Assembly (NCBI GenBank): GCA_037200005.1 | Contig: JBBCGY010000001.1 | Span: 889,812-953,811 of the forward strand | Reading direction: 5' to 3' | DNA length: 64,000 bases | Origin: Alphaproteobacteria bacterium | GTDB taxonomy: Bacteria > Pseudomonadota > Alphaproteobacteria > UBA9219 > RFNS01 | In this document: positions 6,019 to 35,010 of the stretch, in pieces | How positions within the stretch are numbered: position 1 is the stretch's first letter | Layout: every line of letters starts with the position of its first letter | Position numbers and translations under genes: made by a program | The notes under the pieces: model-generated | The model's database searches: none | The model's input: the letters and a program-made list of their open reading frames with translations, nothing else | What the model was told of the DNA's origin: nothing

Positions 6019-7755
6019 ATGATTTCCGGTCCGTTCAGGATCGACGCCATGGGATGGAAGGATGTATTGGTGCCGCGAAATCTTGCCTCACTGACATTGG
6101 GTTGCGCCACGGTGCTGCTGCTTACGCTGTCGGCGTGCGGCGACGTCCATGTGCCGGAGGCCAAATCACTCATTGGCCGGAGGCCGGCCTTGCCGGAGGT
6201 GCCGCAGCCTGATGAAACCGTGCGCGGCGAGGACGATCCCGCCGTCGTTACGTTGAAAATCGGCCGTACCTTGCATGAACGGTATCTCGGACGCGCCGAT
6301 GATTTGCCGAGCGATGTCATCATTCCGCCGACCACTTTGCAGAATGTGCCGGTTACGGCGGCGCTCGAAGCTGTTCTGGCGGGCACGGACTTTTCGCTTT
6401 CATACACGGAAGGCGATTATTCGGACCGGCTCGCGACGCTGGTGAATCTTCGCGGGCCCTTGCCGAAAGTCGTGCAGCGAATTTGCTCGGCGGCCAAGAT
6501 TTTCTGCATTGCCCGCGACGGCAATCTGGAACTGAAAGAAGAACAGAATTTTATCATCGAGCTGCCGCCTATCGAGCGTCATGGAACCGGCGGCGGCGTT
6601 GCCGCCACCAATACGATTGCCGACGCCATTTCCGCGCTTGCCGGAAAGCCTGTCAAGCAGGACGAAGCGGGCGGCAATCTTATCTATACGACGACCGTCG
6701 AAGGCCAGGAGCGCGTGAGCAAATATCTGGAGCAGTTGCGGCATGGAAGGCCGCTGATCGTGCTGCAGATGTATATCTGGGAGGTGTCGCTCGATTCCGA
6801 AGCGGCGGCCGGAATCAATTGGAAGAATCTCAACGTGTCCAAGCTCGGCGGCGACTGGCAAAGCCTGGCGATCAATTCCGGCGCGAGCACCTTTGCCGCC
6901 GCGACCGGCGGCGTCAGCGTGGGCGCGGTCTTAAGCGGAAAGGTCGGCGCGGAGATCATCGCCAACTTCCTGGCCACCCAAGGCGAGGTGCAAACGATCA
7001 GCGATCCGCAGCTGACCTTCGTATCGGGATCGTCCGCCGAATTTCGCGTCGGCGGCACCCGCAGCTATGTTTCCCAGGTCGGACAGCTGACTTCCAATAA
7101 TGTCTCGGGCTCTTCATCGAGCGCCAACGGCATCGGCACCAATACCGTATCGACCGATAAAATCGAAACCGGGCTGAAAATCAATGTCAACGGCTCTTAT
7201 GAATCGGGCGTGGTGTTTTCTACCCTCGAGGTGAACATTACCGATTTGATCAGGATCGATTCGGTCCAAACGGGGGAAACGACCCTGCAGCTGCCCGAAA
7301 CCAGCAACCGCAATTTCACCACGGTATTGCGTGTGCGTCCCGGCGACAGCATGGTGCTGGCGGGCATGACGTCGTCGCGCGACGATTCGGTTCGCGACCG
7401 CCTGAACATACCTTTGATCAACCGGATACCGCTTAACCGCGACGACCAGAAGCAGAACCGGGAATTGGTGGTCATGCTCAAGCCGTCGCTCATTTTCTTT
7501 GCCGACGCCAAGACCGTGGAAGATCGGCAGCGCGAGGAAGCCCCGTCCATGCCGGTGAAAGCCGGCGTTGAAAACAACGCCATAGCGCCGCAACAATCCA
7601 TCCCGGTCTCGCAAACGGACAAGCCGCAATTACCGTCGGCTGTCGGCGTGGCCGATGGCTTGGCTATCGATAAGGAATGGATGCAGCAGGGATTTGCTTC
7701 CGCCCTCGCCGAGTTATCGGGAGAGCCGCCGCAGACAGGGCGGGGACAGCCATGA
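6019..7755 (+). CDS. Secretin (GspD/PilQ/TcpC superfamily) with N-terminal lipoprotein signal
   Basis: Lipobox LLLTLSAC. C-terminal secretin domain (LIVLQMYIWEVSLD...VLRVRPGDSMVLAGMTSSRDDSVRDRLNIPLINRIPLNRDDQKQNRELVVMLKPSLI). Confidence 0.8.
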   Translation: MISGPFRIDAMGWKDVLVPRNLASLTLGCATVLLLTLSACGDVHVPEAKSLIGRRPALPEVPQPDETVRGEDDPAVVTLKIGRTLHERYLGRADDLPSDVIIPPTTLQNVPVTAALEAVLAGTDFSLSYTEGDYSDRLATLVNLRGPLPKVVQRICSAAKIFCIARDGNLELKEEQNFIIELPPIERHGTGGGVAATNTIADAISALAGKPVKQDEAGGNLIYTTTVEGQERVSKYLEQLRHGRPLIVLQMYIWEVSLDSEAAAGINWKNLNVSKLGGDWQSLAINSGASTFAAATGGVSVGAVLSGKVGAEIIANFLATQGEVQTISDPQLTFVSGSSAEFRVGGTRSYVSQVGQLTSNNVSGSSSSANGIGTNTVSTDKIETGLKINVNGSYESGVVFSTLEVNITDLIRIDSVQTGETTLQLPETSNRNFTTVLRVRPGDSMVLAGMTSSRDDSVRDRLNIPLINRIPLNRDDQKQNRELVVMLKPSLIFFADAKTVEDRQREEAPSMPVKAGVENNAIAPQQSIPVSQTDKPQLPSAVGVADGLAIDKEWMQQGFASALAELSGEPPQTGRGQP

Positions 7756-9014
7756 AGCGGTGGTGGATTGTCATGGCCGTGATGGCGATTGTCCTGGGGC
7801 AATCGGGGGGACGGGCGTACGCCGCCCGCGACGCATCCTTCATCGAACCCGGGGCGTTGACGACCAAGGGGAATGTCGCCGAGGCCATCGTCGCCGATCC
7901 TAAATTATACGATGCCGGCGAGACCATGATTGGAATCGCCCGGCGCATCACGATGTTTTTCGTCAATACCAACAGCGGAACGGTCACGATCGGCGAGATC
8001 TCCGCTGCCGGGGACGGCAATGTTACGGTGCAGATTCTCGACAACGACTGCAAGAGAAACGGCAAGCTGGTGGGATTCAGCCGTTGCACCGTCGTCCTGT
8101 CGATTACGCCGACCAGCGTCGGCCCGTGGAGCGTCGAAACCTTGGTCGAGCATGACGGCTCGGGACGGCTGGCGCGCGGCATCGTCACGGGCAAGGCGCA
8201 GATCGATCCCAGGGCGCTCAGGTCCGCGGAAGGACTCAATCTTACCAGCAAAGAAGTCAAGGCGGTGGATTTCAATGATGTCAGCGCCGACGGCGAAGGC
8301 GCGGTGCGAACCGCCCTCATGGTCAATGACAGTCCCGAGAATATAACCTTGCTGTCGATTGAGGTCATCGCGGCCGGACGAGGCCTGGAAAGACTCGACC
8401 AAGGCTGCGCCGTCAATCAAATGCTCAAACCCGATGAGTCTTGTCCCATCACGTTGCGGTGGCAACCGCAGGACAAGGGGGCGATTTCAACCGATTTGAT
8501 CGTGCGTCATACCGGCAAGGCCGGTTTTACGGTTATTCCCGTGCGCGGGCGCTCACAAGGCGGAACGAAAGTCGAGAGCGCCGCCAAGGAAACCCGCATA
8601 ACGCCTTCAACCGGCACCCCGGCCCCTCCCACGGCGGCTGAAATCGAACATCTCGCGGGCAAGCTTCCCGCCGTCGCCGCCATCGATCTGGGCAGCGACC
8701 GGGTCAAGAGCCCCGCGAAAAGCGATAGCGAGATATATTTCATCGGCGCTGTCGGCGACCGGGCCATATTCCAGCGCGATGGAATCACCAAAGTGCTTGC
8801 GATCGACAGCGAAACCGAACTGTCGGGAGCGCATGTCAGGCTGATCGAGATTTCCGGCAAAGTCGCCACCGTCGAGGTCGATGGCCGCCGCAAATATTTG
8901 AAATTGGGCTCTTCCGGTTATCGGCCTTCTTCATCTTTGGTTAAGAAAGACAAGGCTGTTTCTGAAAAAAAGGATGCCGCGTCAAGTAATTCGCAATCTT
9001 CTTTTGGTAAATAA
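7753..9014 (+). CDS. Secreted periplasmic/outer-membrane-associated protein of the pilus operon. Function unknown.
   Basis: Start ATGA-overlaps the secretin stop. Signal peptide MKRWWIVMAVMAIVLGQSGGRAYA. Two internally similar Cys-pair modules (C..C then beta-rich segment). Confidence 0.5.
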
Positions 9015-9060
9015 AATGGTAACAGCGGCGATTCCGGTGGGTGCGCAATCATAATGGCAC

Positions 9061-10839
9061 ATGACATGCCCGCCCCGGCGAAAGGAAGAGAACGTGAACG
9101 AGACCACGCGCGTGGCAGGCATCGAGACCGACGGGAAGAGCCAGCAGGTCAATCCCCGGCACTATGAACTTGCTCGCGCGGAGCAGGCGGTTCACCGCGC
9201 TCGCGGGCGCCATTTAAGCATCGACGACATATTGAAGCGCAATGGCTTTGCCGAAAGCAGCAAGGCCAAGGAAAACGCCACCCGCACCCGCGACGATCTG
9301 ACGATGCAAGCCTTGCGGCTGTATATACCCGCCGCGACCCAGGCGGCGATGGGAATTTGTCTTATGGGATTGAGCGGCGGCGTGTTGCGCATCGCCGTGG
9401 GCGACCGTTTGCACCAGGAAGACATGGATCGCCTTACGGCGGTGCTGACGACTGCGCGCCGCAAGGTCGAGCGCGTTGAAATAGAGCCGTGGGATCGTGC
9501 CGAGCTGACTCGTCTGATGCGCGAGCAATCGGAAATGCCCGGCGAGCGGCTGCTGCGGATATTCTCCAGCCTCAGCCGCGATTCCGACGATTCGACGCTG
9601 ATCGAACAGGCGGTGCATGACATTCTGGCCGAAGCCTTGCAGAGCCGCACCTCGGATATCCATATGACGCTGCAGGACGACGACGTGCGCTGCTGGGTGC
9701 GCTATCGCGTCGACGGCGATCTCGTCTACAAGCACTTGCTTCCGAACCGGGTGATGGCGCCGATCGTCACGCGTATCAAGACCGACGCTAAAATGGACGC
9801 TGCCGACCGCCAGCATCCGCAAGACGGACGCCTCACTTTCGAGTGGCAGGGACGCATGATCGACGTGCGCGTCGCCTGCCTGCCGGTCGCGCCCTCGGGC
9901 GAGAAAATCACGATGCGTCTTCTCGATCGCGAAAATTTGCGCAGCTTCGACGAGCTGTTCAATCACTCGGAAGTGGTGGCCGCCCGCCTTCGCCGCACCC
10001 TGCACGGCCATGTCAAGGACGGCGGCTTGATCGTGGTGTCGGGTCCCACCGGGTCGGGCAAGTCCACGACGCTGTACGGAATCATTCAGGACATCGACCG
10101 CACCGCCAAGGCCGTTTATTCGGTCGAGGCGCCGGTCGAATACGACATGCCTCTGGTCGACCAGACTTCCGTCACCGACAATTCCGCCAACACGATCGCC
10201 GATATTATCCGCGCCTTTATGCGGCATGATCCCGACGTCATCATCGTCGGCGAAATGCGCGATGGCGATACCGTCGAGGCCGCGTTGCGCGCCACGGAGT
10301 CCGGGCATCTCGTCATCACGACCGTTCACGCCGTCGACGCCTTGCATACGCTTGACCGTATCGACGGCTTTTTGAGTTCGGCGTATCGCACCAGCGGATT
10401 GTATATTTTGGGGCATGCGCTGGTGGCCAGCCTGTCGCAGCGTCTCGTGAAAACCGTATGCCCGTCCTGCCACCGCACCGCGCGCGCGGGCGAAGTCTAT
10501 ACAGGAGAGCTGCGGTGCGAGGATTTGGGACTCGATCCCGACGAGGATGTCGGACTGGCCAATCCGGAAGGGTGCGATCTTTGCCATCACCGCGGCTTCT
10601 TCGGCCGGGCGTTGGCGCTTGAAGCCATGTTCCCTCCCGAAGATCAAAGCAGCCGGCGGGCCATCACCGAAATGCTCGTGTCCAACGTTTCGAACTCCAT
10701 TACCGACATCCCGGGCACGATTTACATGCCGCGGCGGGATTCGATCCGCGATCTTATCAGACGCAAGGCCGTGGACGCTCATATGGGCGCGGCGCTTCTG
10801 ATTGAAGAAGCGGCCACCCGTAGTTCGCGGGGGCGCTAG
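9061..10839 (+). CDS. Type II secretion/type IV pilus assembly ATPase (GspE/PilB family)
   Basis: GspE N1 domain, Walker A GPTGSGKSTT, Asp/His boxes (DPDVIIVGEMRD, HLVITTVHA). C-terminal tetracysteine CPSC...CDLC. An alternative GTG start at 9094 is preceded by AGGAAG. Confidence 0.9.
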   Translation: MTCPPRRKEENVNETTRVAGIETDGKSQQVNPRHYELARAEQAVHRARGRHLSIDDILKRNGFAESSKAKENATRTRDDLTMQALRLYIPAATQAAMGICLMGLSGGVLRIAVGDRLHQEDMDRLTAVLTTARRKVERVEIEPWDRAELTRLMREQSEMPGERLLRIFSSLSRDSDDSTLIEQAVHDILAEALQSRTSDIHMTLQDDDVRCWVRYRVDGDLVYKHLLPNRVMAPIVTRIKTDAKMDAADRQHPQDGRLTFEWQGRMIDVRVACLPVAPSGEKITMRLLDRENLRSFDELFNHSEVVAARLRRTLHGHVKDGGLIVVSGPTGSGKSTTLYGIIQDIDRTAKAVYSVEAPVEYDMPLVDQTSVTDNSANTIADIIRAFMRHDPDVIIVGEMRDGDTVEAALRATESGHLVITTVHAVDALHTLDRIDGFLSSAYRTSGLYILGHALVASLSQRLVKTVCPSCHRTARAGEVYTGELRCEDLGLDPDEDVGLANPEGCDLCHHRGFFGRALALEAMFPPEDQSSRRAITEMLVSNVSNSITDIPGTIYMPRRDSIRDLIRRKAVDAHMGAALLIEEAATRSSRGR

Positions 10840-10842
10840 GGC

Positions 10843-12066
10843 ATGAAACTCTATCACGCCAAATATGCGCAGCCTCTTCCTGGCGGCACGGTGACCATCC
10901 GGGAGGAGGATTTTTATCTGCCCGACGTGATCTCGGTGCGGCGGCAGTTGCGCGGACGCGGCCTGTGGCCGATCAAGATTCTCGAGCAAAAACCGCCTGC
11001 CTTCGAATGGCTGGATGTCCGCAGCCGCGAGTGGCAGAAGCAGTTGCTGCGCGCCCTGCGGTTTCAGACGGCGACCGCTTCGGCCGGCACGGCGCTTTTG
11101 AACATCATCGAAGGCGAGGCCGATGCCCGCCGCCGCATGGTGTTTCTGCCTGCGCGAACGGTGCTGAAGGGAGGCGGTTCTTTCTCCGACGCCCTGAAGT
11201 CCCTGAAGCTTATGGACGCCGCGACGATGGCGATCATCGTCTCGGGCGAGCGCGCCGGAGATTTGAAGGGCGTCATCCAGCATGCCATGCAGCATGTCGA
11301 GGAGAAAGGCAAGCAGACCAAAGTGGTGCTCGCCGCGCTCAGCTGGATGGCGTTCGACATATCCAACGTCATTTCCGCGCTGTGGGGCGCGCAGTTCGGC
11401 TTCATCCCCTATTTGCGCGCCAACGCGCCCACGAACACCACGCCCGAGCAGATGCAGAAGCTGGAGACGGCCATCACGCGCGCCTCGTGGATCAATGGTT
11501 CTCTCATCGTCATCACGACCGCCGTGATCGGCGGCGCGATCGTGCTGGCCGCGGCGTTCTGGATGAACCGGCACAAAGCCGACCATCTGGCGGCGCGCCT
11601 TGTCATGAGGGTGCCGCTGTTCGGCGAGTATCTGCGGAATTCGGCGCTGTTCGACACTTGCCGCCTGATAGCCAGGCTCTTGAACGGCAAGGTGCCGCTC
11701 GATGAGGCGCTCAAGATCATCATCGAAACCACCATCGAGCCTTCGGCGCGCAGCTATTGGCGCGAATGCAGAAGCCGTATCATGAAGGGCATCGAGCCGA
11801 GCAAGGCTCTGGCGCGCTGGCCTCTCACCAAAGGCGAACGCGACCAGATTGCGACCGTGCAGTCGGTCGATCAGCTTACCGAAGTCTATGAGGCCATTGC
11901 CGCCGAACGGCAATTGATGGCGAAGGCAACGCAGCGGCGCATCGTCGTCAGCGGCGTGGCCTGCATGATGACGTTGTTCGGCGCCGTGGTTCTTACGATG
12001 ATCTATCTGCTCATGATCCAGAATTCCGGGTTCATGGACAGCTTGCAGGGAATGCGCGAAGGATAA
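10843..12066 (+). CDS. Inner-membrane platform protein (GspF/PilC family)
   Basis: Two T2SSF-like repeats (ERAGDLKGVIQHAMQHVEEKGKQ; GKVPLDEALKIIIE). Three TM segments. Start 4 nt after the ATPase stop. Confidence 0.85.
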   Translation: MKLYHAKYAQPLPGGTVTIREEDFYLPDVISVRRQLRGRGLWPIKILEQKPPAFEWLDVRSREWQKQLLRALRFQTATASAGTALLNIIEGEADARRRMVFLPARTVLKGGGSFSDALKSLKLMDAATMAIIVSGERAGDLKGVIQHAMQHVEEKGKQTKVVLAALSWMAFDISNVISALWGAQFGFIPYLRANAPTNTTPEQMQKLETAITRASWINGSLIVITTAVIGGAIVLAAAFWMNRHKADHLAARLVMRVPLFGEYLRNSALFDTCRLIARLLNGKVPLDEALKIIIETTIEPSARSYWRECRSRIMKGIEPSKALARWPLTKGERDQIATVQSVDQLTEVYEAIAAERQLMAKATQRRIVVSGVACMMTLFGAVVLTMIYLLMIQNSGFMDSLQGMREG

Positions 12067-12080
12067 AAACAAGGATAAAA

Positions 12081-13112
12081 ATGCTGCAGGCTCTTCTCAA
12101 AGAAAAAATGTCCCATGTCGCCGGAAAAGCGCGGCGGGTCGCGGCGTCGATCGAAACCGCCGCCGCGCCCTCGTCCGTCGAAGAGACCGCCGTCACGACC
12201 TCCGGAGGTTTCTTCGGCGGCCAGGTGGCGCTGGACGATTTCTTCATTCCCGGCGAGCTGGTCGGCGGCGCATGTCCGCGCGTGCGCGGCCAGGAACGGG
12301 AAATTGCCTGGCATGCGGCGGCGGAGGCTTGCGATAGCGAGCGCCTGCACATGGTATGGAGCGCGACCGAAGACAGGGTATGGTATCTGGCGGCGCGTTC
12401 CGCGGAATTCGCTTCCAAGCCGTTTACCTGGTGCCCGTTCGCTTCGCTGCTGCCCGGCATGAAAGACGCGACGCCGGGGATGGTTTGCTACGCGTATTAT
12501 TCCGACGAAGCGGCGACGATGATGACGGTGTCGTCGGACACGCTGCAAATTCACCGCGGCACGCCCGCCGTCGTCCGCGCCAAGACCGAGCGGGTCATAC
12601 GCGAACTGGGCGACGCCGCTTCCATCGAAATCGATCCTGAGATGGTCATGGGGCTTACGCCGGTCGCATGGTATTCGGTCTCGCTGTTCGAAGACCGGGC
12701 CAGGCGCTTGCTTACGCTGGTGTCCGTCGCCGCGGCGATGCTGTGCCTGACGGTCGCCTTTCTGGTCTGGCTGATTGCTTCGCTTTCCATCGTGTCCCAC
12801 CGCAGCAATCTCGAGGCGGTTCAGACGCGCACCCAGGAAAGAACCATGCAGCTCATGCAATCGGTCGAAAAGCTTCGCGCCAGCGTCATGCGCGACCAGA
12901 TCGCGCGTTTCACCGAGCTTAACGAAGGTTTGGTGCAGGTCGGCGGATGGCTTAAATTTTATCAGATCAAGAGCAATGCCGTGCGCTGGCGCGCTTTGCT
13001 GCCCGTCAACGTGACCGGCGACAGGATCAAGGAATTGGGCGGCAAGCTTCTGGATACCAAAGAACAGGGCGTGCTGGTCGGAACCGATAAACTGACCCCT
13101 GACGGCAAATGA
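12081..13112 (+). CDS. Bitopic assembly protein: cytoplasmic domain, single TM, periplasmic coiled coil (GspL / PilM-PilN-like)
   Basis: About 185-aa cytoplasmic N-domain, TM helix LLTLVSVAAAMLCLTVAFLVWLIASLSIV, periplasmic helical region. Position follows the platform gene. The family assignment is inferred from topology, not from motifs. Confidence 0.4.
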   Translation: MLQALLKEKMSHVAGKARRVAASIETAAAPSSVEETAVTTSGGFFGGQVALDDFFIPGELVGGACPRVRGQEREIAWHAAAEACDSERLHMVWSATEDRVWYLAARSAEFASKPFTWCPFASLLPGMKDATPGMVCYAYYSDEAATMMTVSSDTLQIHRGTPAVVRAKTERVIRELGDAASIEIDPEMVMGLTPVAWYSVSLFEDRARRLLTLVSVAAAMLCLTVAFLVWLIASLSIVSHRSNLEAVQTRTQERTMQLMQSVEKLRASVMRDQIARFTELNEGLVQVGGWLKFYQIKSNAVRWRALLPVNVTGDRIKELGGKLLDTKEQGVLVGTDKLTPDGK

Positions 13113-13122
13113 TGGAGTCGGC

Positions 13123-13677
13123 ATGAAAGCCATGGGAAACATATCCGACCTGTTGTCTCCTCTCCTTATCGCCAAGGTATTGCGGTCGCTTGACCGCACG
13201 GCGATGGTGATGATGATCGTCGCCTGGTCGGCGGCGATGGGGATGATGGGAATCGCGATTTACACCGTCAAGACGGCGGGCCGCACCAGCCAGCAGGCCG
13301 AAGCCGCCGCCGCGCTGGAACCGGTGGTGCCGACTATGCAGCGGACGGCATTGCCCCGCGCCGACCTGGAAAAACTGGCCGACCGGCTTGCCTCGCGCTA
13401 TCGCGGGGTATCTTTCGTGGCGACCCCGGATAACACCCTGGATATTGCGAACAGCGAGCCCAACAATTTCATGGACTGGCTGGCCTCGCTCAGTTATCTC
13501 GACACGATCGCGCCGGAGGCGCGATGGACGATCCGCGACCTGTGCATCGGCAGCGAATGCGGCCAGGCGCTCATGCGGGCCAGAATCGTGGGAGAACGGG
13601 TCACATTTAAAGCGCCCGCCCAGCCGGATCTGGAAAATATCGGTGGCGACGGGGAATCCGCTCCCGCCAAGCCATAA
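13123..13677 (+). CDS. Bitopic N-in single-TM periplasmic protein (GspM/PilO-like)
   Basis: TM helix AMVMMIVAWSAAMGMMGIAIYTV near the N-terminus, about 130-aa periplasmic domain. Position follows the L-like gene. Confidence 0.35.
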   Translation: MKAMGNISDLLSPLLIAKVLRSLDRTAMVMMIVAWSAAMGMMGIAIYTVKTAGRTSQQAEAAAALEPVVPTMQRTALPRADLEKLADRLASRYRGVSFVATPDNTLDIANSEPNNFMDWLASLSYLDTIAPEARWTIRDLCIGSECGQALMRARIVGERVTFKAPAQPDLENIGGDGESAPAKP

Positions 13678-13936
13678 TTGATGCTCATGCGCTAGCAATT
13701 TTGTCACACTTGCGTTCAATTCTAGATTGGCTGCGCGCGATACGATTATTTAGGGTAGTATTCCGAACAGGAGTTCTTAATGATCGTCTGGTATGATTCA
13801 ACTCGGCAATTTGCTTAACTTAGTCTTAACCTAAGAACCGTAATACATGTGCGTTACGGCTTATGCGGTTTTGGCAAGGTGAGCGATTGCTGCTACTCCA
13901 GGACGATTGGTGCCTGGAACATAAGGGGAGATAAAA

Positions 13937-14611
13937 ATGCAAAACAAGAACGTCTCGCGGCTTCCTAAGGACGCCGGTATCGCTATCGGCCCTATCCTGT
14001 TCGTGGTAGCCATCCTTGGCATTCTGGCCGCGGCGATCGCGGCGGGCAGCGGCTCCTTCACGGGAAGCAGCGCTTCAGAATCCAGCAAAACCAAGGCGGC
14101 CGCGCTGATCGACATGGGGCAAAACCTCAAGGTCGGCGTCGATAGGATGCTTGGCCTCGGTTATGACGGCGGAACCACCTCGGGCACGTCCATAGACATT
14201 AATCCGGTCAATACATCCGGCGACGACGATTTATTCTCGCCGTCAGGCGGAGGAATCAGCGCGCCATCGGTAGCCATGGCCAACACGCCATCCACCGATA
14301 GATGGAACTATTCCAGGCATATTGTCACTAATATGGGAAGTGCAACAGCCACGACCGGCCGGGATCTTACGGCGTTTATACGGATCGCGGCGACCGTGTG
14401 CAATCAAGTCAACGTCAAGGTTGTTGGCGCTCCGGCGACTTTGGATGTGACCACGAACGTCAACTATGCGGCAGACGCCGGCAATCTTGCGACGGATGAA
14501 GATGGAAATTGGGCGCCGGCGCTTGCAGGGCAGATGACGGGCTGTTTCAAGAATACCGCCTCCGCTCCTTGGGACGGATACTGGTACTATCAGGTTCTCG
14601 CCATCCAATAG
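13937..14611 (+). CDS. Pilin-like protein: basic leader, 23-aa hydrophobic N-terminal segment, C-terminal Cys pair. Possible type IVb-class major pilin without Glu5.
   Basis: MQNKNVSRLPKDAG then IAIGPILFVVAILGILAAAIAAG. Cys residues about 50 aa apart near the C-terminus (TVCNQ...TGCFK), resembling a pilin D-region. Strong RBS AAGGGGAG. Confidence 0.5.
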   Translation: MQNKNVSRLPKDAGIAIGPILFVVAILGILAAAIAAGSGSFTGSSASESSKTKAAALIDMGQNLKVGVDRMLGLGYDGGTTSGTSIDINPVNTSGDDDLFSPSGGGISAPSVAMANTPSTDRWNYSRHIVTNMGSATATTGRDLTAFIRIAATVCNQVNVKVVGAPATLDVTTNVNYAADAGNLATDEDGNWAPALAGQMTGCFKNTASAPWDGYWYYQVLAIQ

Positions 14612-14628
14612 GCGAAACGCGAACCCTC

Positions 14629-14672
14629 AGCCGCCATTCCTGCATGCAGCGGGGATGGCGGTTTCTTTTTGG
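14629..14672 (+). terminator. Rho-independent terminator after the pilin-like gene
   Basis: Hairpin CCGCCATTCC...GGGATGGCGG followed by TTTCTTTTT. Confidence 0.6.
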
Positions 14673-15758: not shown

Positions 15759-17360
<1,602 letters not shown>

Positions 17361-17378
17361 TCGGTTGCGCAGGATATC

Positions 17379-18302
17379 GTGATATCGAGAAATGCCACCA
17401 TATTAACCCCGCCCTTCGCCGTTGCATCCGGCGGCGAAGCGACGCTCGGCGATTATTTCGCGCTGCTCAAGCCGCGCGTCATGTCGCTGGTGGTCTTCAC
17501 CGGCGTCGTGGGCATGGCGCTGGCGCCGGGCCATATCCATCCGGTGCTGGGCCTGATCGCGATCCTGTGTATCGCCATGGCTTCGGGCGGCAGCGGCGCG
17601 GTGAATATGTGGTACGACCGCGATATCGACGCGGTGATGCAGCGCACGGCGGGCCGTCCGATCCCTTCGGGAAAAATCGCGCCGCACGAGGCGATAGAAA
17701 TCGGTAGCATGCTGATTTTGGCTTCGGTCGGGCTGATGGGCCTCGCCACTAATTGGGCGGCAGCGGCGCTGCTCGGCTTCGCGGCAGCTTTTTATATATT
17801 CGTTTACACCATGGGATTGAAGCGGCGGACGCCGCAGAACATCGTTATCGGCGGCGCGGCGGGCGCTTTTCCGCCGATGATCGGCTGGGTGGCGGTCACG
17901 GGCGACGTGAGCTGGATGCCGGTGATTTTGTTCCTGCTGATCTTCTTTTGGACGCCGCCGCATTTCTGGGCGCTGGCCCTTTATCGCAGCGGCGATTACG
18001 CGCGCGCAGGCGTGCCGATGCTGCCGGTCGTCGCCGGAGCGCGCGCGACGAAGCTGCAGATGCTGCTTTATACGCTGGCGCTGCTGCCGCTGGCGCTCGC
18101 GCCCGTGATGATGGGACAAGCCGGATGGATTTACGGCGGCGGCGCGGCTTTGCTCGGCGCGATGTTCGTCATTCATGCCGTGCGGGTCTGGTTCGACGAA
18201 ACCGAGCGCAGCCCCCGCGCCATGTTCAAATTCTCGCTGATCTATCTGGCTGGATTATTCGCGCTGCTGCTGATCGATCATTGGATCGGAGCGGCGGCAT
18301 GA
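17379..18302 (+). CDS. ctaB: Protoheme IX farnesyltransferase (heme O synthase)
   Basis: UbiA-family polytopic protein. Conserved position after coxA. Confidence 0.9.
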   Translation: MISRNATILTPPFAVASGGEATLGDYFALLKPRVMSLVVFTGVVGMALAPGHIHPVLGLIAILCIAMASGGSGAVNMWYDRDIDAVMQRTAGRPIPSGKIAPHEAIEIGSMLILASVGLMGLATNWAAAALLGFAAAFYIFVYTMGLKRRTPQNIVIGGAAGAFPPMIGWVAVTGDVSWMPVILFLLIFFWTPPHFWALALYRSGDYARAGVPMLPVVAGARATKLQMLLYTLALLPLALAPVMMGQAGWIYGGGAALLGAMFVIHAVRVWFDETERSPRAMFKFSLIYLAGLFALLLIDHWIGAAA

Positions 18303-18427
18303 CGCAGGACGAAAGAAGCGTAGTTGCCGCGCGGCGCTTGCGGGCGCGCAACTGGGCGGTGCTGGGAATTCTGGCGGCGTTCGTCATCGCCATTTACGCC
18401 ATCACGATCATCAGGGTTCACCATTAA
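18299..18427 (+). CDS. Small single-TM protein between ctaB and ctaG (CoxF-like small ORF)
   Basis: ATGA overlap with the ctaB stop and TAATG overlap with the ctaG start. Encodes MTQDERSVVAARRLRARNWAVLGILAAFVIAIYAITIIRVHH. Confidence 0.35.
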   Translation: MTQDERSVVAARRLRARNWAVLGILAAFVIAIYAITIIRVHH

Positions 18428-19011
18428 TGCCCGGCGATAAAAATATTCGCATGGCGATGAAGCTGACGGCGCTGGTCGTCGCGATGATCGCTCTGTCGTT
18501 CGCCGCCGTGCCGCTTTACGATGTGTTCTGCAAGGCGACGGGCCTCGGCGGCACGACGCAGCGCGCGGCGAAAGCTCCCGAGAACGCGGCTGAAACCCGG
18601 ACCGTCACCGTAACCTTCAACGCCGATGTCGCGCCTGGCCTGCCTTGGGAATTCAAGCCGGAAACGGCGTCGATGCCGGTTCGAGCCGGGCAGGCGGCCA
18701 TGGTAAAATTCCGCGCCAAAAACCTGTCCGACCGCCCATTGGTCGGCACGGCGGTGTATAACGTCCAGCCTGGCAAGGTGGGCCTGTATTTCAACAAGGT
18801 GGAATGCTTCTGCTTCCAGGAGCAGATGCTGCAGCCGGGGCAGGAGGCCGAATTTCCGGTGACGTTCTTCCTCGATCCCGACATGGCCAAGGATAAAAAA
18901 TTGGATGATGTGCAGGTCGTCACATTGTCCTATACTTTTTTCCTGGCGAAGGATCAAAGCAAGGCCAAGCTGGCGCAGAGCAACGCGCCGGCGCAGATTA
19001 ATCAGAATTGA
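18427..19011 (+). CDS. ctaG: Cytochrome c oxidase assembly protein CtaG/Cox11
   Basis: Copper-binding CFCF motif (KVECFCFQEQ), single N-terminal TM. Confidence 0.9.
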   Translation: MPGDKNIRMAMKLTALVVAMIALSFAAVPLYDVFCKATGLGGTTQRAAKAPENAAETRTVTVTFNADVAPGLPWEFKPETASMPVRAGQAAMVKFRAKNLSDRPLVGTAVYNVQPGKVGLYFNKVECFCFQEQMLQPGQEAEFPVTFFLDPDMAKDKKLDDVQVVTLSYTFFLAKDQSKAKLAQSNAPAQINQN

Positions 19012-19023
19012 TGCGAGGTTTTC

Positions 19024-19866
19024 ATGAGCGCAGAATCCCCTCACTATGAAGACAGCGGCCTGCCGCAGCCCTATCATTTGGTGAAGCCGTCGCCCTGGCC
19101 GATGGTCGGCGCTCTGGCCGCCGGAATGCTGGCCGCCGGCATAGTCTTGTTCATGCATAAGGTGAAGCTGGACGGATTCGAGATCGGCGCGAAGGGCATA
19201 TTGGTCGGCCTCGCGGCGGTTCTGGCCGTCATGTTCGTCTGGTGGCGCGACGTGATCCGTGAGTCGGTGGTCGAACGCGCGCATTCGCCGATCGTCAAAA
19301 TCGGCCTGCGTTACGGCATGGCGCTGTTCATCGCTTCCGAAGTCATGTTCTTCGCGGCCTTTTTCTGGGCCTATTTCAACAGCGCGCTATTTCCCAATGA
19401 GCATATCGGCGGCGTCTGGCCGCCCGCGAATATCAAAACCTTCAACCCGTTCGACATGCCGTTCATGATGACGCTGATCCTGCTGCTTTCGGGCACGACG
19501 GTCACCTGGGCGCACCATGCCGCCATCGAGGGCGACCAGCGCGGCATGAAGCGGGCGCTGGCCTGCACGGTCGGGCTTGGCGTGCTTTTTTCCTGCTTCC
19601 AGGCGTTCGAGTATCATCACGCCACCTTCACTATCAAGGACGGCATTTTCGGCTCGACCTTCTACATGGCGACCGGTTTCCATGGTCTGCATGTCATCAT
19701 AGGAACGATTTTCCTTGCCGTATGCTGGTGGCGCGCGGCCAAGGGGCACTTCACGCCGGAAAGCCATTTCGGGCTGGAAGCCGCCGCCTGGTACTGGCAT
19801 TTCGTGGACGTCGTATGGCTGTTCCTGTTCACGTCGGTTTATATTACCGACTGGTATCATCACTGA
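19024..19866 (+). CDS. coxC: Cytochrome c oxidase subunit III
   Basis: 7-TM CoxC family (FHGLHVIIGTIFLAVCWWR, WYWHFVDVVWLFLF). Confidence 0.9.
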   Translation: MSAESPHYEDSGLPQPYHLVKPSPWPMVGALAAGMLAAGIVLFMHKVKLDGFEIGAKGILVGLAAVLAVMFVWWRDVIRESVVERAHSPIVKIGLRYGMALFIASEVMFFAAFFWAYFNSALFPNEHIGGVWPPANIKTFNPFDMPFMMTLILLLSGTTVTWAHHAAIEGDQRGMKRALACTVGLGVLFSCFQAFEYHHATFTIKDGIFGSTFYMATGFHGLHVIIGTIFLAVCWWRAAKGHFTPESHFGLEAAAWYWHFVDVVWLFLFTSVYITDWYHH

Positions 19867-19951: not shown

Positions 19952-20355
19952 ATGAAGACGATTGCCGCCGCATTGGGTTCTTTCGTTATTGCGACAAACC
20001 AGCAATGGGATGCCTTGCCGTTAGGCGAGCGCAATGCCGTCACGTCTTCGGTTCGGGGCTTATTCCCTGAATCTTCCCGCCTTGTGGTTAAAAGGGACCA
20101 TGTTTCGGCGCAGTTTCTGAAGACTGGAGTAACCTTGGCTTATGATCTGGATAACGGCATCATGACAGCCTCCACGCCCTATGCATCGCAGATTACCGTG
20201 GTGGAGCCTATAACCGAGAGACAGTACGCGGCTTTGCAGCAAGGCCGGAGGCGAGGTCGTTACCGTCGATATCGAAGGCAGCAATCTTGTCTACAGCGCC
20301 CTGCGCTCCATTCTAACGCGGCCCCATATACGGGAAGCCCTGAGAAACGATCTAT
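19952..20355 (+). CDS. Hypothetical protein (about 135 aa) with a probable frameshift near 20240. Lower GC than its neighbours.
   Basis: Strong RBS AAGGAGacatagATG. The ORF 19952-20413 degenerates into Arg-rich text after ...QYAALQQ. The adjacent frame reads KAGGEVVTVDIEGSNLVYSALRSILTRPHIREALRNDL and stops at 20355. Confidence 0.35.
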
Positions 20356-20373
20356 AGCACGCCGAAAACGAGG

Positions 20374-20781
20374 TCAGAGATCCAAGCCGAGGAATTTCCT
20401 GACGTCGCCATAGGTCATGCCTATCTGCCGTGTAACGTCGGGCCGGTTCTCGCCCTCATGTGTTGCCTCGATAATGTTGAATTCGTTACCGGCGTGTGAA
20501 TATTCGACGCGGGTTTCATGGGTTTTCGGTATTATGTTATAAGGATTTGGCTCCATCCGTTGGCCATCGATGATAAAATATGCCACCGAGACAACGTCGC
20601 ACTTGAACCCGAGAATCTTTTCTCTCTCATGGCGGATAGGCTCGACCGTTGCGCCCCGAGCCGCCTTTGTAGCCAGTATCTCATTATACAAGGGTAGAAC
20701 TTTTGTCCGCAGCGCGCGCATCATCGCGCGCGCGTTTTTATATTGCTGCAATGTTTTGCCGGTTAATGGTTCCATCGTCAT
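20374..20781 (-). CDS. Hypothetical protein (135 aa). No recognisable domain.
   Basis: Balanced amino-acid composition. Convergent with the previous gene. Lies inside the otherwise conserved cox locus. Confidence 0.4.
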   Translation of the reverse strand: MTMEPLTGKTLQQYKNARAMMRALRTKVLPLYNEILATKAARGATVEPIRHEREKILGFKCDVVSVAYFIIDGQRMEPNPYNIIPKTHETRVEYSHAGNEFNIIEATHEGENRPDVTRQIGMTYGDVRKFLGLDL

Positions 20782-20889
20782 AAGCTCGCTTTATATATGT
20801 GATCTTCGAAAAGATATTAATGTGCGTTTCGGGTTGAAAGCAATTACAATCAGTTCTTTACCAGTTCTCCATGGTTAAACGGCGCGACG

Positions 20890-21237
20890 ATGACTGAAGC
20901 GGTTTCCATCAAAAATGTATTGTTTAGCCGCTGTCCCCGTTGCGGCAACGGCTCGCTGTTCGAGGGCTTTCTGAAGGTCAAGCCGTCATGCGACGAATGC
21001 GGCCTCGATTTCACCAAGGCGGATTCCGGCGACGGGGCGGCGGTGCTGCTTATCTTTCTTGTCGGCTTCCTGACCGTGCCGCCGATGGTCATTCTCGCGC
21101 TTCATGTCGACTGGCCGCTATGGGTTCATGCCATCCTGGCGAGCGTCGTGATCCTCGGCCTTGCGCTCGGCGCGATGCGCCCCGCCAAGGCGCTGATGAT
21201 CGCGTTGCAGTACCGGCACCGGCGGGAGACGTTTTAA
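20890..21237 (+). CDS. DUF983-family membrane protein with N-terminal Cys4 zinc ribbon
   Basis: [10 protein letters not shown]...CDECGLDF followed by two TM helices. Conserved partner of surf1 in alphaproteobacterial cox loci. Confidence 0.75.
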
Positions 21238-22346
21238 TGAGGAAAGGAAGCGTTGATCGCGGCGATCCAGCTACATATATAAGTGCCAGCCACATTGCCA
21301 ACAGCATTTATACTGCTCTGTTCCGCAAAATTATATATTTTTTGAAGAATTCCAGGACTTTCTTTTTTGATGGTCATTAAGGCTTGCTTTATTTCAGCCT
21401 CATCACTTTTCTGTACTCCATTTCTAATTTTAGTTTCTATAATTTTTAAGGCAGTGCTGAGGGTATTGTTATGAGATTGGGTTAAGGACTCCACTACAAT
21501 TTTTAGTAATTCCAGTTCGGGGGTTGGCTTATCAAGAGCTATGGATAAGAGTGTAGTCATTTCTTGTAGTTGGCTTTGAAGACTTTTATTATGTGAGGCT
21601 AGGTGTTCGCTGTGGCGTTGCTCCACTTCTAAGAGCTCAGTCCGATTTTGAATCTGCATTTCGGCAATTCTTAACTGCTGTTTCATTTCTAAAACCTTTA
21701 TTTCGTTGCCAAGAAATGTTTCGGGAGTTATCTCTCCTTTGAGAACCAAATTATAGTTGTGCAATGTTTGTTCTACCTGCTCTTTTTCTCCATCAGGTGT
21801 TTCTATTACTAAAATGACTTTTAAGCCTTCTTGCTGAATGGAAACGCGTACATCTTTGTTGGCATATTTATCTCGAACGATACTGGAAAAATTTGATAGA
21901 ATGGTCATACCAGCAGCGTGATACTCTGGTGGAAATTCTATTGATCTGACAATCGATGAAAAACCTTCTTTTGTTAGCAATTCATGCCAATTTATATCGA
22001 CGCCCAATCCTTTAATAAATTCTTTGGCAAAGTCATTCCGAGCTTCGGCCCCTGGTTCGCATATGAGTGCTGCACATAGAACAGTGCATTCATCACACAC
22101 AAATACTGTGGGGCTTCCAGAGATAAGTTTACGAACTTCATGTTGGCTCTTTCCACAAAAGGAGCAGTAAACTATCTCGCTACGAATGCGAACAGTCTGG
22201 GCTTGATGGGCAGCTGCGTCCGCAATAGCGGACATCTGGCGGCCAGCGTCCGCCTGCATGTTTTTGAGTATTTCCGTCTGTCGATCTATCAGGTCTCTGA
22301 GAGCGGCTGCGCTTAATATAGGTGGAGATACCTGATCGTCAGACAT
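21234..22346 (-). CDS. ClpX-type C4 zinc-finger domain protein with AT-rich coiled-coil C-terminal region. Function unknown.
   Basis: [35 protein letters not shown] closely matches the ClpX N-terminal zinc-binding domain. No AAA+ module. The 3' two-thirds is about 35% GC in a roughly 60% GC context. Confidence 0.65.
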
Positions 22347-22447
22347 GAATAATGCTCCAAATTATACGATACACAACGCCAATGCTTGCATTATCATTCC
22401 ATTTATTCAAGTAACAATATAAGTGCAAACTTCTCTAGGAGTTCCTT

Positions 22448-23367: not shown

Positions 23368-24750
23368 TTGCGTTATCACAGCACACGCGGGCAAGCGCCG
23401 GAGCTTGATTTTCTGGACGCCGCGATGGCGGGCCTGGCGGCGGATGGCGGCCTTTATTTGCCCAAGGCATGGCCCAAAATCGCCGAAGCGGACATGGTTT
23501 CGTGGCGGGATCAGCCATACCGGAATATTGCCTTTAACGTCTTAAAGCCTCTGATCGGTGACGCTTTAACGAATGCGGAGTTGCAAGGCCTGATCGATCG
23601 CGCGCTCGCGTATTTCGCCCATCCCGATATTGCGCCCTTACGCCAATTAGACGAACGATTGTGGCTGCTCGAATTGTTTCACGGCCCGACGCTGGCATTC
23701 AAGGATATGGCGCTGCAATTCCTGGGACAATTGTTCGATTTCATGCTGGCGCGAAGCGGCAAGCGCGCGACGGTGATCGGCGCGACATCGGGTGACACCG
23801 GCTCGGCGGCGATGGCGGGCTGCGCCGGATGCAAGAATCTCGACGTTTTTATTCTCTATCCGCATAACCGGCCCAGCGAGATTCAGCGCCGCCAGATGAC
23901 AACCCACACCGCGCCGAATATTCACGCCATCGCCGTCGAAGGCAGCTTCGATGACTGCCAGGCGCTGGTGAAGGCGATCTTCAACGACCCCGCAGCGCGG
24001 GCGGCGTTCAATCCGATAGCGGTGAATTCGATCAACTGGGCGCGGATCGCGGCGCAGATCGTCTATTATTTCGTCGCGGCGATAAGGCTGGGCGCGCCGG
24101 CTGTCGCGCCGAGCTTCGTCGTGCCGACGGGCAATTTCGGCAATATCTTCGCCGGTTTCGCCGCGATGCAAATGGGACTGCCGGTTTCGCGGCTGGCGGC
24201 CGCGACCAACCGCAACGACGCGGTGCATCGCTTTTTCACCGAAGGGGAAATCATTCCCGCCGTCGTGCAGCCAAGCCTCAGCCCCAGCATGGATATTCAA
24301 GTCCCCAGCAATCTGGAGCGGTTGCTGTTCGCGCTGACGGATTATGACGGCGCGGCGACGCGCAAGATCATGGCCGCGGACCATCCGCGCCTGTCGCCGA
24401 TCATGCTTGGAAAGGCGCGGCAATATTTCACGTCGGCGCGGGTCGACGATGCCGAAACCTTGAAGGCCATGACGGATATTTATGGCGGAACCGGCTATTT
24501 GCTCGATCCCCACAGCGCGGTCGGAGTCGCCGCCGCGCGGCAGCTGGCGCGCGAACTGCCGGAGCCGGTCGTCTGCCTCGCCACCGCGCATCCGGCGAAA
24601 TTCCCGGAAGCCGCCGCCAGCGCCATTCACCATCCGCTCGATCCGCCGCCGGAGATCGCGGCGCTGTATGATCTGCCGGAGCGCATAACCATCTTGCCGT
24701 CCGACTACCGGCAAGTCACCGATTATATCAGGGAACACAGAACAGCATGA
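23368..24750 (+). CDS. thrC: Threonine synthase
   Basis: PLP-lysine motif FHGPTLAFKDMALQ. TTG start. 460 aa. Confidence 0.9.
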   Translation: MRYHSTRGQAPELDFLDAAMAGLAADGGLYLPKAWPKIAEADMVSWRDQPYRNIAFNVLKPLIGDALTNAELQGLIDRALAYFAHPDIAPLRQLDERLWLLELFHGPTLAFKDMALQFLGQLFDFMLARSGKRATVIGATSGDTGSAAMAGCAGCKNLDVFILYPHNRPSEIQRRQMTTHTAPNIHAIAVEGSFDDCQALVKAIFNDPAARAAFNPIAVNSINWARIAAQIVYYFVAAIRLGAPAVAPSFVVPTGNFGNIFAGFAAMQMGLPVSRLAAATNRNDAVHRFFTEGEIIPAVVQPSLSPSMDIQVPSNLERLLFALTDYDGAATRKIMAADHPRLSPIMLGKARQYFTSARVDDAETLKAMTDIYGGTGYLLDPHSAVGVAAARQLARELPEPVVCLATAHPAKFPEAAASAIHHPLDPPPEIAALYDLPERITILPSDYRQVTDYIREHRTA

Positions 24751-25244
24751 CGGTCCGGATTTCAAAACTCGCCAATGGTTTGACGGTGGCCACCGACACC
24801 ATGCCCGATTCCTACAGCGTCGCCTTCGGCGTGTGGGCGGGGGTTGGAACCCGCGACGAGCCGAAAGAGGCGCAAGGAGTCGCGCATCTGGTCGAGCATA
24901 TGCTGTTCAAGGGTACGAAACGGCGCAGCGCCATCGAAATTTCCGAGGCGATGGAGGGCGTGGGCGGCTACATGAACGCCTATACCTCGCGCGAAGAGAC
25001 GGCCTATCACGCGCGCATGCTGCCCGAGCATGTCGAGCGCGGCTGCGATATCATATCCGATATGCTGATGCATTCGGTGATCGATCCGGTCGAGCTTGAC
25101 CGCGAACGCGCGGTCATCATCCAGGAAATCGGCCAGTCTCTCGATGCCCCCGACGATCATATTTTCGATCTGATGCAGGAAACGGCTTTTCCGGGGCAGG
25201 CAATCGTGAAAGCGCCATTATATGACGACCAAAAGGAATCATAA
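24747..25244 (+). pseudogene. M16-family zinc peptidase truncated after about 155 aa. The 3' remainder is missing.
   Basis: HxxEH motif HLVEHMLFKG and the N-terminal M16 fold. Homology ends near 25207 (FPGQAI), about 270 aa short of full length. The region overlaps the end of a minus-strand island gene. Confidence 0.65.
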
Positions 25245-26201
25245 CCGAACCCCAGCCACGGATTATGACTCATCACCGCCTTGATGACGGCAGGCCAGAT
25301 GACTGTTCTGCCCGATAACGTGGCATCGCGCCCCATCATTGCGGTTGCCGATGCGAGTTCTGACGTATCGACCATGAACATCATCGGCACAATAACAACC
25401 AATATAATTACCCCCGATATATGATCCCACTCTGGTTCTTCTCATCAATTTCGTAAGATAAAAAATCCCTATCATCGACGTCAGCAAAAGCCATGCGCCG
25501 CGCGATAACGACCCAATGGCAAGAATGATTGATATAACGAACAGAAAAATCCCCATTCTGCGCGATGTTTCGGCATGCATCAGCAGGAGAGCGATCAATG
25601 TGCTGGCAACCATCGTGCTGCCCATTGTGTTCTTGTGGTTAAAATAGCCGCGAAATGCCGGATAATGCTTATCGTGATGGATGCCCTGCGCCGGGTCGAG
25701 AATGACCGCCAGCAAGGTCACTAGACAGACGGCAATCATGCAGTAGCCTAGAATCCTAAGGAATTGCGGCGACGAGTACCTGGTTACGAAATAGAAGGCC
25801 AGCATCGTACCGCCGAGCGCATTGATCGAACGCCTGAGCGTCACGGTCGGATCAATCGACCACACGACTGAAAGCACCGTCAGGACGCCGATCACCGCCA
25901 AAGGCCAGGCGGCCTTGATCACGGGAAGGCTTTTTCTCCATCTGATCACCAGATAAAGCAGCGCGTAAAAATAAATCGGCATAAGAATGATCTGGCGAAT
26001 TGGATTGACGATATCGCCCTGCCCTCTTTGAGCGATCAAAGGCGAGCCTACGTGCGAGTCTTCGTCACCGCCCGTGCCGTAGAAAAGCACGCCGCATGCG
26101 CCCGTAACCATAAGAATGGCGACCAAGATAAGCAAGAATTCGAGGCTGAAAATCCTCACCCGCTTATTCTTATTCAAGCTTTCACTATACTGCGTATCCA
26201 T
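25157..26201 (-). pseudogene. O-antigen ligase/Wzy_C-like polytopic membrane protein, frameshifted near 25400
   Basis: Multi-TM N-terminal part in ORF 25263-26201. Wzy_C-like C-terminal piece (GRTVIWPAVIKAVMSHNPWLGFGYDSFWSSY) in ORF 25157-25402 in another frame. Confidence 0.45.
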
Positions 26202-26204
26202 ATC

Positions 26205-28517: not shown

Positions 28518-28627
28518 AAACTTCTCCTGACGAGCCGGCCATTTATAATACTTCTCTGTAATTCCAATGCCTTTATACCCGGATTTATTACTTTCAACAT
28601 ATTGTTTTATCTACCTATAGGGCGGTT

Positions 28628-30675: not shown

Positions 30676-30678
30676 AAC

Positions 30679-31818: not shown

Positions 31819-31821
31819 TTT

Positions 31822-34889: not shown

Positions 34890-35010
34890 GGCCCGCTTTT
34901 CATTGCCATTCCGGACGCCCCTTCATGGAGGCGATCCGGAATCCAGGGAAACAGTGCTTTGCTTGGCATGGATTCCGGTCTCGCGCCCAAGGACGCGCCG
35001 GAATGACAAT

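Follow-up and report, generated by a model that had tools for sequence, protein, structure and literature searches.

The locus studied here raises the question of which machine is encoded by seven neighbouring genes (g1 to g7) that bring together a secretin, an assembly ATPase, a platform protein and a pilin-like protein. With their terminator, these genes occupy positions 6019-14672 of a 64-kb window, which is the whole stretch of 64,000 nucleotides that was analysed (Alphaproteobacteria bacterium, assembly GCA_037200005.1, contig JBBCGY010000001.1, positions 889,812 to 953,811 of the forward strand). With an ATPase of the PilB/GspE family, a platform of the GspF/PilC family and a type 4 pilin, the cassette clearly belongs to the type IV filament (T4F) superfamily, so it is not categorically new. 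We believe it likely that the cassette is a complete envelope-spanning machine of this superfamily, which represents an unnamed and uncharacterised family and works as modelled below. Four traits appear unusual: the absence of Glu5 from the pilins, the presence of only one pilin in the reduced form of the cassette, a short peptidase that was ancestrally part of the cassette, and an immunoglobulin-like (Ig-like) partner protein with a variable number of repeats. Literature searches turned up no description of this system.

Secretin, ATPase and platform

An initial annotation of this DNA had listed seven co-directional genes, and all seven open reading frames (ORFs) were present on the + strand. 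Its assignment of three of them to a lipobox secretin, a GspE/PilB ATPase with a tetracysteine motif and a GspF/PilC platform held in the profile searches. The first gene, g1 (6019-7755, +), encodes an outer-membrane liposecretin of 578 amino acids (aa) with the lipobox LSAC, and the lipobox cysteine, Cys40, was kept in 50 of 52 relatives. Pfam Secretin matched residues 318-492 of g1 (2.6e-16). The best NCBIfam model was MshL, with 97.7 bits against a cutoff of 250, and the scores with GspD (61.8 bits, cutoff 351) and PilN (57 bits, cutoff 288) were weaker. The only match of g1 among the PDB sequences was the lipoprotein secretin BfpB (5.7e-9).

The assembly ATPase g3 starts at 9061, or at 9094 if the NCBI start is taken, and ends at 10839 (+), giving 592 or 581 aa, respectively. 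It matched Pfam T2SSE (4.6e-84), has the conserved Walker A motif GPTGSGKS at residue 328 and carries the tetracysteine motif CxxC...CxxC (C467, C470, C505, C508), the cysteines of which were kept in 51-52 of 52 relatives. In NCBIfam, the scores of g3 were 260 bits with GspE (cutoff 630) and 238 bits with PilB, both below the equivalog cutoffs, and 49 bits with the TadA-family model (cutoff 373). Among the PDB sequences, the order was GspE of Vibrio (196 bits), PilB (181 bits), PilT (100 bits) and BfpD (81 bits); the scores with E. coli GspE, IncI1 PilQ and the homologue of Rhodoferax were 187, 82 and 302 bits, respectively. The inner-membrane platform g4 (10843-12066, +; 407 aa) is of the GspF type and matched Pfam T2SSF in two stretches (7.9e-18). 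Its NCBIfam scores with GspF and ComGB were approximately 51 bits, under the cutoffs (424 for GspF). No NCBIfam equivalog cutoff was reached for any class of system.

Conservation and distribution of the cassette

For the locus survey, one genome per species was scanned with a profile of g2, and 54 loci were obtained, all from uncultured metagenome-assembled genomes (MAGs). These loci were labelled Alphaproteobacteria, Rhodospirillales, Rhodospirillaceae, Pseudomonadota, 'uncultured proteobacterium', 'Micavibrio sp.' or 'Bdellovibrionales', and NCBI places Micavibrio under Bdellovibrionales. The carriers of the cassette are mainly uncultured Micavibrio-like alphaproteobacteria. The synteny comparison proposed in the initial annotation gave the order g1-g2-g3-g4-g5-g6-g7 in every sufficiently long locus among the 54, and the same order was seen in metagenome contigs. 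The genes flanking the 54 loci were of unrelated contexts. Because the same seven-gene order recurs in independent loci with varied flanks, the cassette is a conserved functional module and not a chance arrangement.

The median identity to the proteins of the window was 73% for g3, 62% for g4, 46% for g1, 45% for g5, 44% for g7, 37% for g2 and 31% for g6. The g2, g5 and g7 families comprised 104, 232 and 399 clusters, respectively, and most of their members were unnamed or hypothetical; a few members of the g7 family were called 'pseudopilin PulG' by JGI. There was no significant Pfam or NCBIfam match for g2, g5, g6 or g7, and the profiles of g2, g5 and g6 had no match among the PDB sequences. 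Micavibrio aeruginosavorus ARL-13 was considered as a carrier of the cassette and rejected; its gene table gives a Tad locus and a differently ordered cluster of secretin, PilT, PilD, F and E genes.

The pilin

The prepilin g7 (13937-14611, +; 224 aa) starts with a basic leader of 14 residues up to Gly14, which is followed by IAIGPILFVVAILGILAAAIAAG and then by a globular domain with the pair Cys155/Cys203. Its homologues share the short basic leader and the invariant Gly, and then IAIGPILF[IV][IV]AIL[GA]ILAAAIAAGSGSF. Gly14 and Pro19 were invariant in 50/50 sequences, and the two cysteines near the C-terminus were invariant in 49-50 of the 50. The protein has a pilin fold, with PilA4, PilS, PilA, PilV and EpsG among the top twelve matches, and the type 4 pilin traits for which g7 was tested were all found (a short leader ending in Gly, approximately 21 hydrophobic residues, and a long N-terminal helix with a beta-sheet head). 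The fold and the conserved N-terminus bear out the 224-aa pilin-like protein of the initial annotation. The comparison of the g7 profile with E. coli GspG gave an hhalign probability of 3.8%. We conclude that g7 is a type 4 pilin, nearest to the type IVb pilins in size and shape, with Pro for Glu5.

Glu5 of known pilins forms a salt bridge to the N-terminus of the neighbouring subunit, and it is missing only from the tip subunit of known filaments (PMC10191384). The mature N-terminus of g7, IAIGP, has Pro in place of the usual Glu5, so subunits in the filament core must pack differently from those of known bacterial pili. In some loci, g7 has 2-5 paralogues in tandem, which have the same N-terminus and diverge afterwards, a pattern typical of major and minor pilins. 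In two contigs of a sister clade, L060 and L065, the mature pilin N-terminus is identical despite a GC content of 59% versus 35%, which indicates a very strong constraint on this segment.

The bitopic proteins

The initial annotation had described two bitopic proteins with a GspL-like and a GspM-like topology. For the first, g5 (12081-13112, +; 343 aa), this description was supported by the layout and by an actin-like fold in the AlphaFold2 model, which had a predicted local distance difference test (pLDDT) score of 81.7. The model consists of an N-terminal helix, an alpha/beta domain (residues 60-201), a very long helix with the transmembrane segment, and a small periplasmic domain of the form alpha-beta-beta / alpha-beta-beta. 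The top Foldseek matches of the g5 model were M. xanthus PilM (3jc8), the cytoplasmic domain of PilO2Bp (4bz0, prob 1.0), P. aeruginosa PilM, FtsA and BfpC (3vhj). PilO2Bp is an actin-like protein of an R64-type pilus machine of B. pseudomallei (4bz0). Judged from its model, g5 is a component of the GspL/BfpC/PilO2 type with a predicted actin-like half-domain in the cytoplasm. Components of this type bind the ATPase in known systems.

For the second protein, g6 (13123-13677, +; 184 aa), the likeness goes no further than topology. The topology predicted from its sequence is a short cytoplasmic N-terminus, one transmembrane segment and approximately 130 periplasmic aa, and g6 follows g5 in all loci. 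By position and predicted topology only, g6 is GspM/PilO-like. Comparisons of g6 with GspM and with the periplasmic domain of g5, made to test for homology, gave no signal.

The Ig-repeat protein

The start of g2 (7752-9014, +; 420 aa) is the NCBI start of WDO70_04575, a protein identical to g2 from the MAG 'Alphaproteobacteria bacterium' (GCA_037975565.1). The protein appears to be exported by the Sec pathway, with a cleavable-looking signal peptide (AYA before the cut and ARDASF after it), and the motif ARDAAF is conserved at this place across relatives. After the signal peptide come two Ig-like repeats of the ASH type, a linker, a conserved C-terminal domain of approximately 70 aa and a Ser-rich tail. 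The Ig-like repeats carry conserved Cys pairs in invariant columns, and the Pfam match to ASH was weak. The start of g2 overlapped the stop of the secretin gene by 4 nt in 41 of 51 loci.

When 1.84 billion representatives were searched with the g2 profile, 3018 hits were obtained, many of them giant proteins with 10-23 matched stretches. The protein at the g2 position has 420 aa with 2 Ig-like repeats in the window, 561 aa with 3 repeats in locus L060, 2404 aa with 19 repeats in L065 and 4358 aa with 36 repeats in L064. In these three relatives, the repeat protein lies between the secretin and ATPase genes, and its C-terminal segment is similar in all. The L064 contig stops inside the gene after g2, which has no Pfam call.

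An Ig domain is estimated at approximately 4 nm, so that 36 repeats would be far wider than the periplasm, which favours an exported or surface-displayed protein. The approximately tenfold range in length, with 19-36 repeats in relatives, also makes a fixed periplasmic connector unlikely. A GspC/PilP-type connector had been considered because of a C-terminal likeness seen by eye; Pfam T2SSC matched one member only (E = 0.2), and the hhalign comparisons with E. coli GspC, IncI1 PilP and a 234-aa protein of Rhodoferax were negative, and this assignment is unproven. To judge from its sequence, g2 is most likely the machine's own cargo, or a surface adhesin tethered via its C-terminal domain. We liken it to TcpF or CofJ, which are exported by type IVb systems.

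Prepilin peptidase and a probable reduced form of the cassette

A24 prepilin peptidases were searched for in the window and the loci using jackhmmer seeded with E. coli GspO. They were detected in this way only in L055, L056 and L060, and an A24 peptidase is also present in the L065 cassette. L055 and L056 are the two deepest branches of the main family, and in both an A24 gene of approximately 160 aa lies directly after the last pilin paralogue on the same strand. Both proteins show the DxR...P and GxGD motifs, and the L056 protein scored above the Pfam Peptidase_A24 cutoff. In the sister clade (L060 and L065), the secretin gene and a response-regulator gene have a divergent 168-aa A24 gene upstream of them. 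These short forms presumably lack the N-terminal methyltransferase part, in analogy to TadV-type enzymes.

The deep-branching relatives thus hold 3-5 pilin paralogues and a short A24 peptidase within the cassette, whereas the window has neither. The absence of GspG-K, a prepilin peptidase and a retraction ATPase, which the initial annotation had noted for the operon, extended to the whole 64-kb window, in which we found no A24 peptidase, no second pilin, no canonical pseudopilin, no GFTLIE-type class III signal, no second secretin, no second ATPase and no retraction ATPase. The A24 peptidase and the several pilins of the deep branches indicate that the ancestral cassette had multiple pilins and its own peptidase. 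The clade of the window looks like a reduced form, which would have retained one or two pilins but not a linked peptidase. The idea of an undescribed minimal machine is qualified in the same way: the system is absent from Pfam, NCBIfam and the PDB sequence set, whereas its minimal state does not extend to the deep relatives with A24 and extra pilins. The system of the window probably uses a peptidase encoded elsewhere in the genome, and the Msh loci, which also lack a prepilin peptidase of their own, offer a precedent (PMC6668835).

Some loci carry further genes. In L012, the pilin gene is directly followed by two PilT/PilU-sized ATPase genes (352 and 343 aa, 17066-19172) with weak T2SSE-family matches, and this pair is the sole hint of a linked retraction ATPase. 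In L005, a separate cluster (1-2127) lies 6 kb upstream of a three-pilin cassette and encodes a T2SSF platform, an N_methyl pilin and a Bundlin/PilS-type pilin, which indicates that classical type IVb-like pili coexist with the cassette in one MAG. In the sister clade, the response-regulator gene is small and stand-alone and lies just before the secretin gene (L060, 3267-3659; L065, 7889-8260); a response regulator is also found upstream in the Rhodoferax cluster, and there is none in the cassette of the window.

Proposed mechanism

In the proposed model, g7 would be made as a prepilin and placed in the inner membrane, where an A24 prepilin peptidase, presumably encoded elsewhere in this genome, would cut off the leader after the invariant Gly14. 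The ATPase g3, a hexamer with a zinc finger, would dock both on the platform g4 and on the actin-like cytoplasmic domain of g5, which would be paired with g6, and the g3-g4-g5-g6 complex would extract mature g7 from the membrane into a helical filament. The filament would grow into or through the lipid-anchored secretin g1. The g2 protein, translationally coupled to the secretin, would be exported by the machine, or held and displayed by it. We lean slightly towards a surface pilus that also handles g2 over a piston-like endopilus.

Several observations weigh against this model. Searches of the 64-kb window, and of the 10 kb around 50 other loci, yielded no A24 peptidase. The locus has a single pilin, and this pilin has no Glu5, so assembly might fail or differ. 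The Foldseek E-values of g5 are weak (2e-3 to 4e-2), yet the hits are coherent. There was no Pfam, PDB or hhalign match of g6 to GspM, PilO, PilP or g5. Finally, the C-terminus of g2 has a faint resemblance to GspC-HR/PilP, at the T2SSC E-value of 0.2 and with negative hhalign results.

Comparison with known systems

The alternative that survives best is a dedicated type II secretion system (T2SS), in which g7 would form a short periplasmic endopilus that pushes the folded g2 protein, and perhaps hydrolases as well, through the secretin, and no surface pilus would be made. We regard it as rather unlikely. Like the T2SS, the cassette forms a single operon with a secretin, an ATPase that resembles GspE and has an N-terminal extension and a tetracysteine zinc site, a platform resembling GspF, and an L-like bitopic protein with an actin-like domain followed by a small M-like one, and neither the cassette nor the window encodes a retraction ATPase. 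The top scores of g3 were with GspE in both NCBIfam and the PDB, and g2 is always co-encoded, coupled to the secretin and expandable past the size of the periplasm. In the Micavibrio genome paper, an 'incomplete' T2SS was found to be up-regulated in prey attachment, although the layout of that locus is unlike that of the present cassette (PMC3189940). Type IVb pili also work without a retraction ATPase and with cognate export, the latter as in TCP and CFA/III, so these arguments do not discriminate.

Several results set the cassette apart from the T2SS. The GspD, GspE and GspF equivalog cutoffs were missed widely, and the cassette contains no GspG, no GspH-K, no recognisable GspC and no GFTLIE motif. 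E. coli GspC, G, L and M had no profile similarity to the cassette proteins. The secretin is a short lipoprotein, and the filament subunit, of 210 aa, is a type IVb-like pilin that bears a disulfide and lacks Glu5. A classical T2SS with pseudopilins encoded nearby, the outcome that the initial annotation had set against its own reading, was not what the profile searches gave. The mitochondrial T2SS of protists was considered as a relative and rejected; its GspG keeps Glu5 and it classifies as a canonical T2SS (PMC8134430).

A type IVb pilus in the sense of R64, Bfp or Tcp, with g2 as PilO, is improbable. It would agree with the lipoprotein secretin, which has BfpB as its sole PDB sequence match, with the likeness of the g5 fold to PilO2Bp and BfpC, and with the secretin-first gene order. 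The ATPase, in contrast, falls outside the BfpD/PilQ group (81 and 82 bits, versus 187-196 for GspE and 181 for PilB), the secretin reached 57 of the 288 bits of the PilN model, the leader, at 14 aa, is a short one, Glu5 is replaced by Pro, and the locus has no minor pilin or peptidase. PilN, PilO2, PilP and PilS of the IncI1 pil operon had no match to g1, g2, g5, g6 or g7 in phmmer and hhalign. PilO2 is bitopic with an actin-like domain, unlike g2 with its signal peptide and Ig-like repeats; the hhalign probability between g2 and IncI1 PilO2 was 0.2%, and g2 had no Pfam PilO-family match. The initial annotation had likened the gene order to PilN-PilO-PilQ-PilR-PilS of R64, with the 420-aa protein as PilO. 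This mapping was rejected: among the IncI1 Pil proteins, PilQ alone had a match in the cassette (the ATPase, which scores higher with GspE), the likeness is one of gene order only, and the fold counterpart of PilO2 is g5.

The last alternative, that g7 is an uncleaved, N-terminally anchored membrane protein and the cassette a degenerate, non-assembling remnant, could draw on the lack of a peptidase and minor pilin in the window and of Glu5 and any Pfam or NCBIfam pilin match in g7, but it is very improbable given seven intact genes conserved over dozens of genomes (ATPase median identity 73%), Gly14 and Pro19 invariant in 50/50 sequences, the pilin fold and the A24 peptidases in the cassettes of relatives.

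The likeness to the mannose-sensitive haemagglutinin (MSHA) system lies in MshL as the best NCBIfam model of g1, in the single locus and in the lack of a peptidase gene, which is shared with the Msh loci (PMC6668835). Unlike MSHA, the cassette has no MshI, J, K, M or N and no N-methyl type pilins, its MshL score is under the cutoff, and its seven genes include none of the other Msh-specific components. As for Tad (type IVc) pili, the TadA model score is under its cutoff, there is one platform gene, and the 224-aa pilin is not Flp-like. As far as sequence comparison goes, the family is a mixture of T2SS traits (ATPase and L/M layout) and type IVb traits (liposecretin and large pilin), and it falls in neither by the tests run.

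The closest annotated relative is a cluster on plasmid NC_007901.1 of Rhodoferax ferrireducens T118 (RFER_RS22335-22280; L062, 155890-175017), which is a true homologue and a diverged copy. Matches were obtained for the secretin (2e-56), the ATPase (6e-93), the platform (2e-36), g5 (6e-18; hhalign 97%), g6 (4e-9; 95%) and the pilins (95%). The Rhodoferax cluster has its secretin, ATPase, platform, L-like protein, M-like protein and two pilins in the order of the cassette, and its pilins start with FMNAL or FINAL after the Gly, also without Glu5. It differs in having a further secretin paralogue, which is PulD-like, as well as a gene for a peptidyl-prolyl isomerase, a third pilin-like gene, a protein of 1049 aa that has a signal peptide and no Pfam match and, at the g2 position, a 234-aa protein without Ig-like repeats. 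The plasmid is conjugative (MOBH/MPF_T), the cluster adjoins PRTRC-system genes, and RefSeq annotates its products as hypothetical proteins. In a plasmid survey with g5, tblastn gave no match at 1e-3, whereas phmmer does link g5 to the Rhodoferax protein.

A possible separate class

The T4F superfamily comprises the type IVa pilus (T4aP), type IVb pilus (T4bP), Tad, MSH, T2SS, Com and archaeal classes of machines. A large survey concluded that few new families are left among the systems with a recognisable pilin (PMC6668835). The pilin, L-like, M-like and Ig-repeat proteins of the present cassette match no Pfam, NCBIfam or PDB sequence model, so this family would escape such surveys. We tentatively propose a separate class of bacterial T4F machines with Glu5-less major pilins, an A24 peptidase that is short and non-methylating, a liposecretin and a variable, secretin-coupled Ig-repeat protein, which the machine would export or display.

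Glu5 is thought to neutralise the N-terminal charge and to drive the docking of subunits, and a Glu5-less, single-pilin system would be a natural test of the minimal needs for filament assembly. Known T4F always contain minor pilins and a Glu5 (PMC10191384). If the proposal is right, the Micavibrio-like version may work with a single pilin, and would then be without precedent among type 4 filaments in having no minor pilins; it might also serve as an organelle for prey attachment by small-genome, probably epibiotic predators. Its uncultured hosts have small genomes and are related to the predator Micavibrio, which gives the cassette relevance to the prey-attachment apparatus. The repeat-variable Ig-like partner suggests a new mode of adhesin export or anchoring.

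Operon structure and genomic context

The initial annotation had described the seven genes as tightly coupled. This was borne out for g1/g2 (4-nt overlap), g3/g4 (3-nt gap), g4/g5 (14-nt gap) and g5/g6 (10-nt gap), and not for g2/g3, with a gap of 46-79 nt, or g6/g7, with an intergenic region of 259 nt (13678-13936, +). The latter holds a sigma-70-like site (13701-13728) and may contain a separate promoter of the pilin gene, and a gap of similar kind precedes g7 in most loci, according to the locus coordinates. A sigma-54 promoter upstream of g7 was read by eye and rejected, with a spacing off the consensus. There was no Rfam match in the operon, including the g6/g7 gap. The operon ends, as the initial annotation had it, in an intrinsic terminator (14629-14672, +) with a 15-bp stem (9 GC pairs) and a 5-nt loop, followed by the T-run TCTTTTTGGG.

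The gene upstream of the operon encodes an S11 D-Ala-D-Ala carboxypeptidase with a SPOR domain, and the genes downstream are coxB, coxA, ctaB and ctaG; the profile matches thus agree with the position between a cell-wall carboxypeptidase gene and the cox locus given earlier. Farther downstream, the GC content falls to 0.44-0.51 at 20000-22400, a region that holds a 248-aa ORF without a Pfam match and, at 21234-22346 (-), a gene for a 370-aa protein whose only domain match is a ClpX-type C4 zinc finger. An M16 peptidase gene (24747-25263) ends after its N-terminal domain (165 aa) at approximately 25.2 kb; this break coincides with the end of contig JBBCBH010010965.1, and the genes beyond it are on the opposite strand. 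The truncated gene and the contig end suggest that the window joins two MAG contigs, so linkage to the operon cannot be assumed past approximately 25.2 kb. Beyond this point, a run of - strand genes (25263-37155) has a patchy GC content of 0.49-0.59. Encoded in this run are a GH10 xylanase-type glycosidase (26205-27239; Pfam 1.7e-81) and several paralogues of approximately 340-640 aa, the N-termini of which resemble acyltransferase-3-like membrane proteins by eye.

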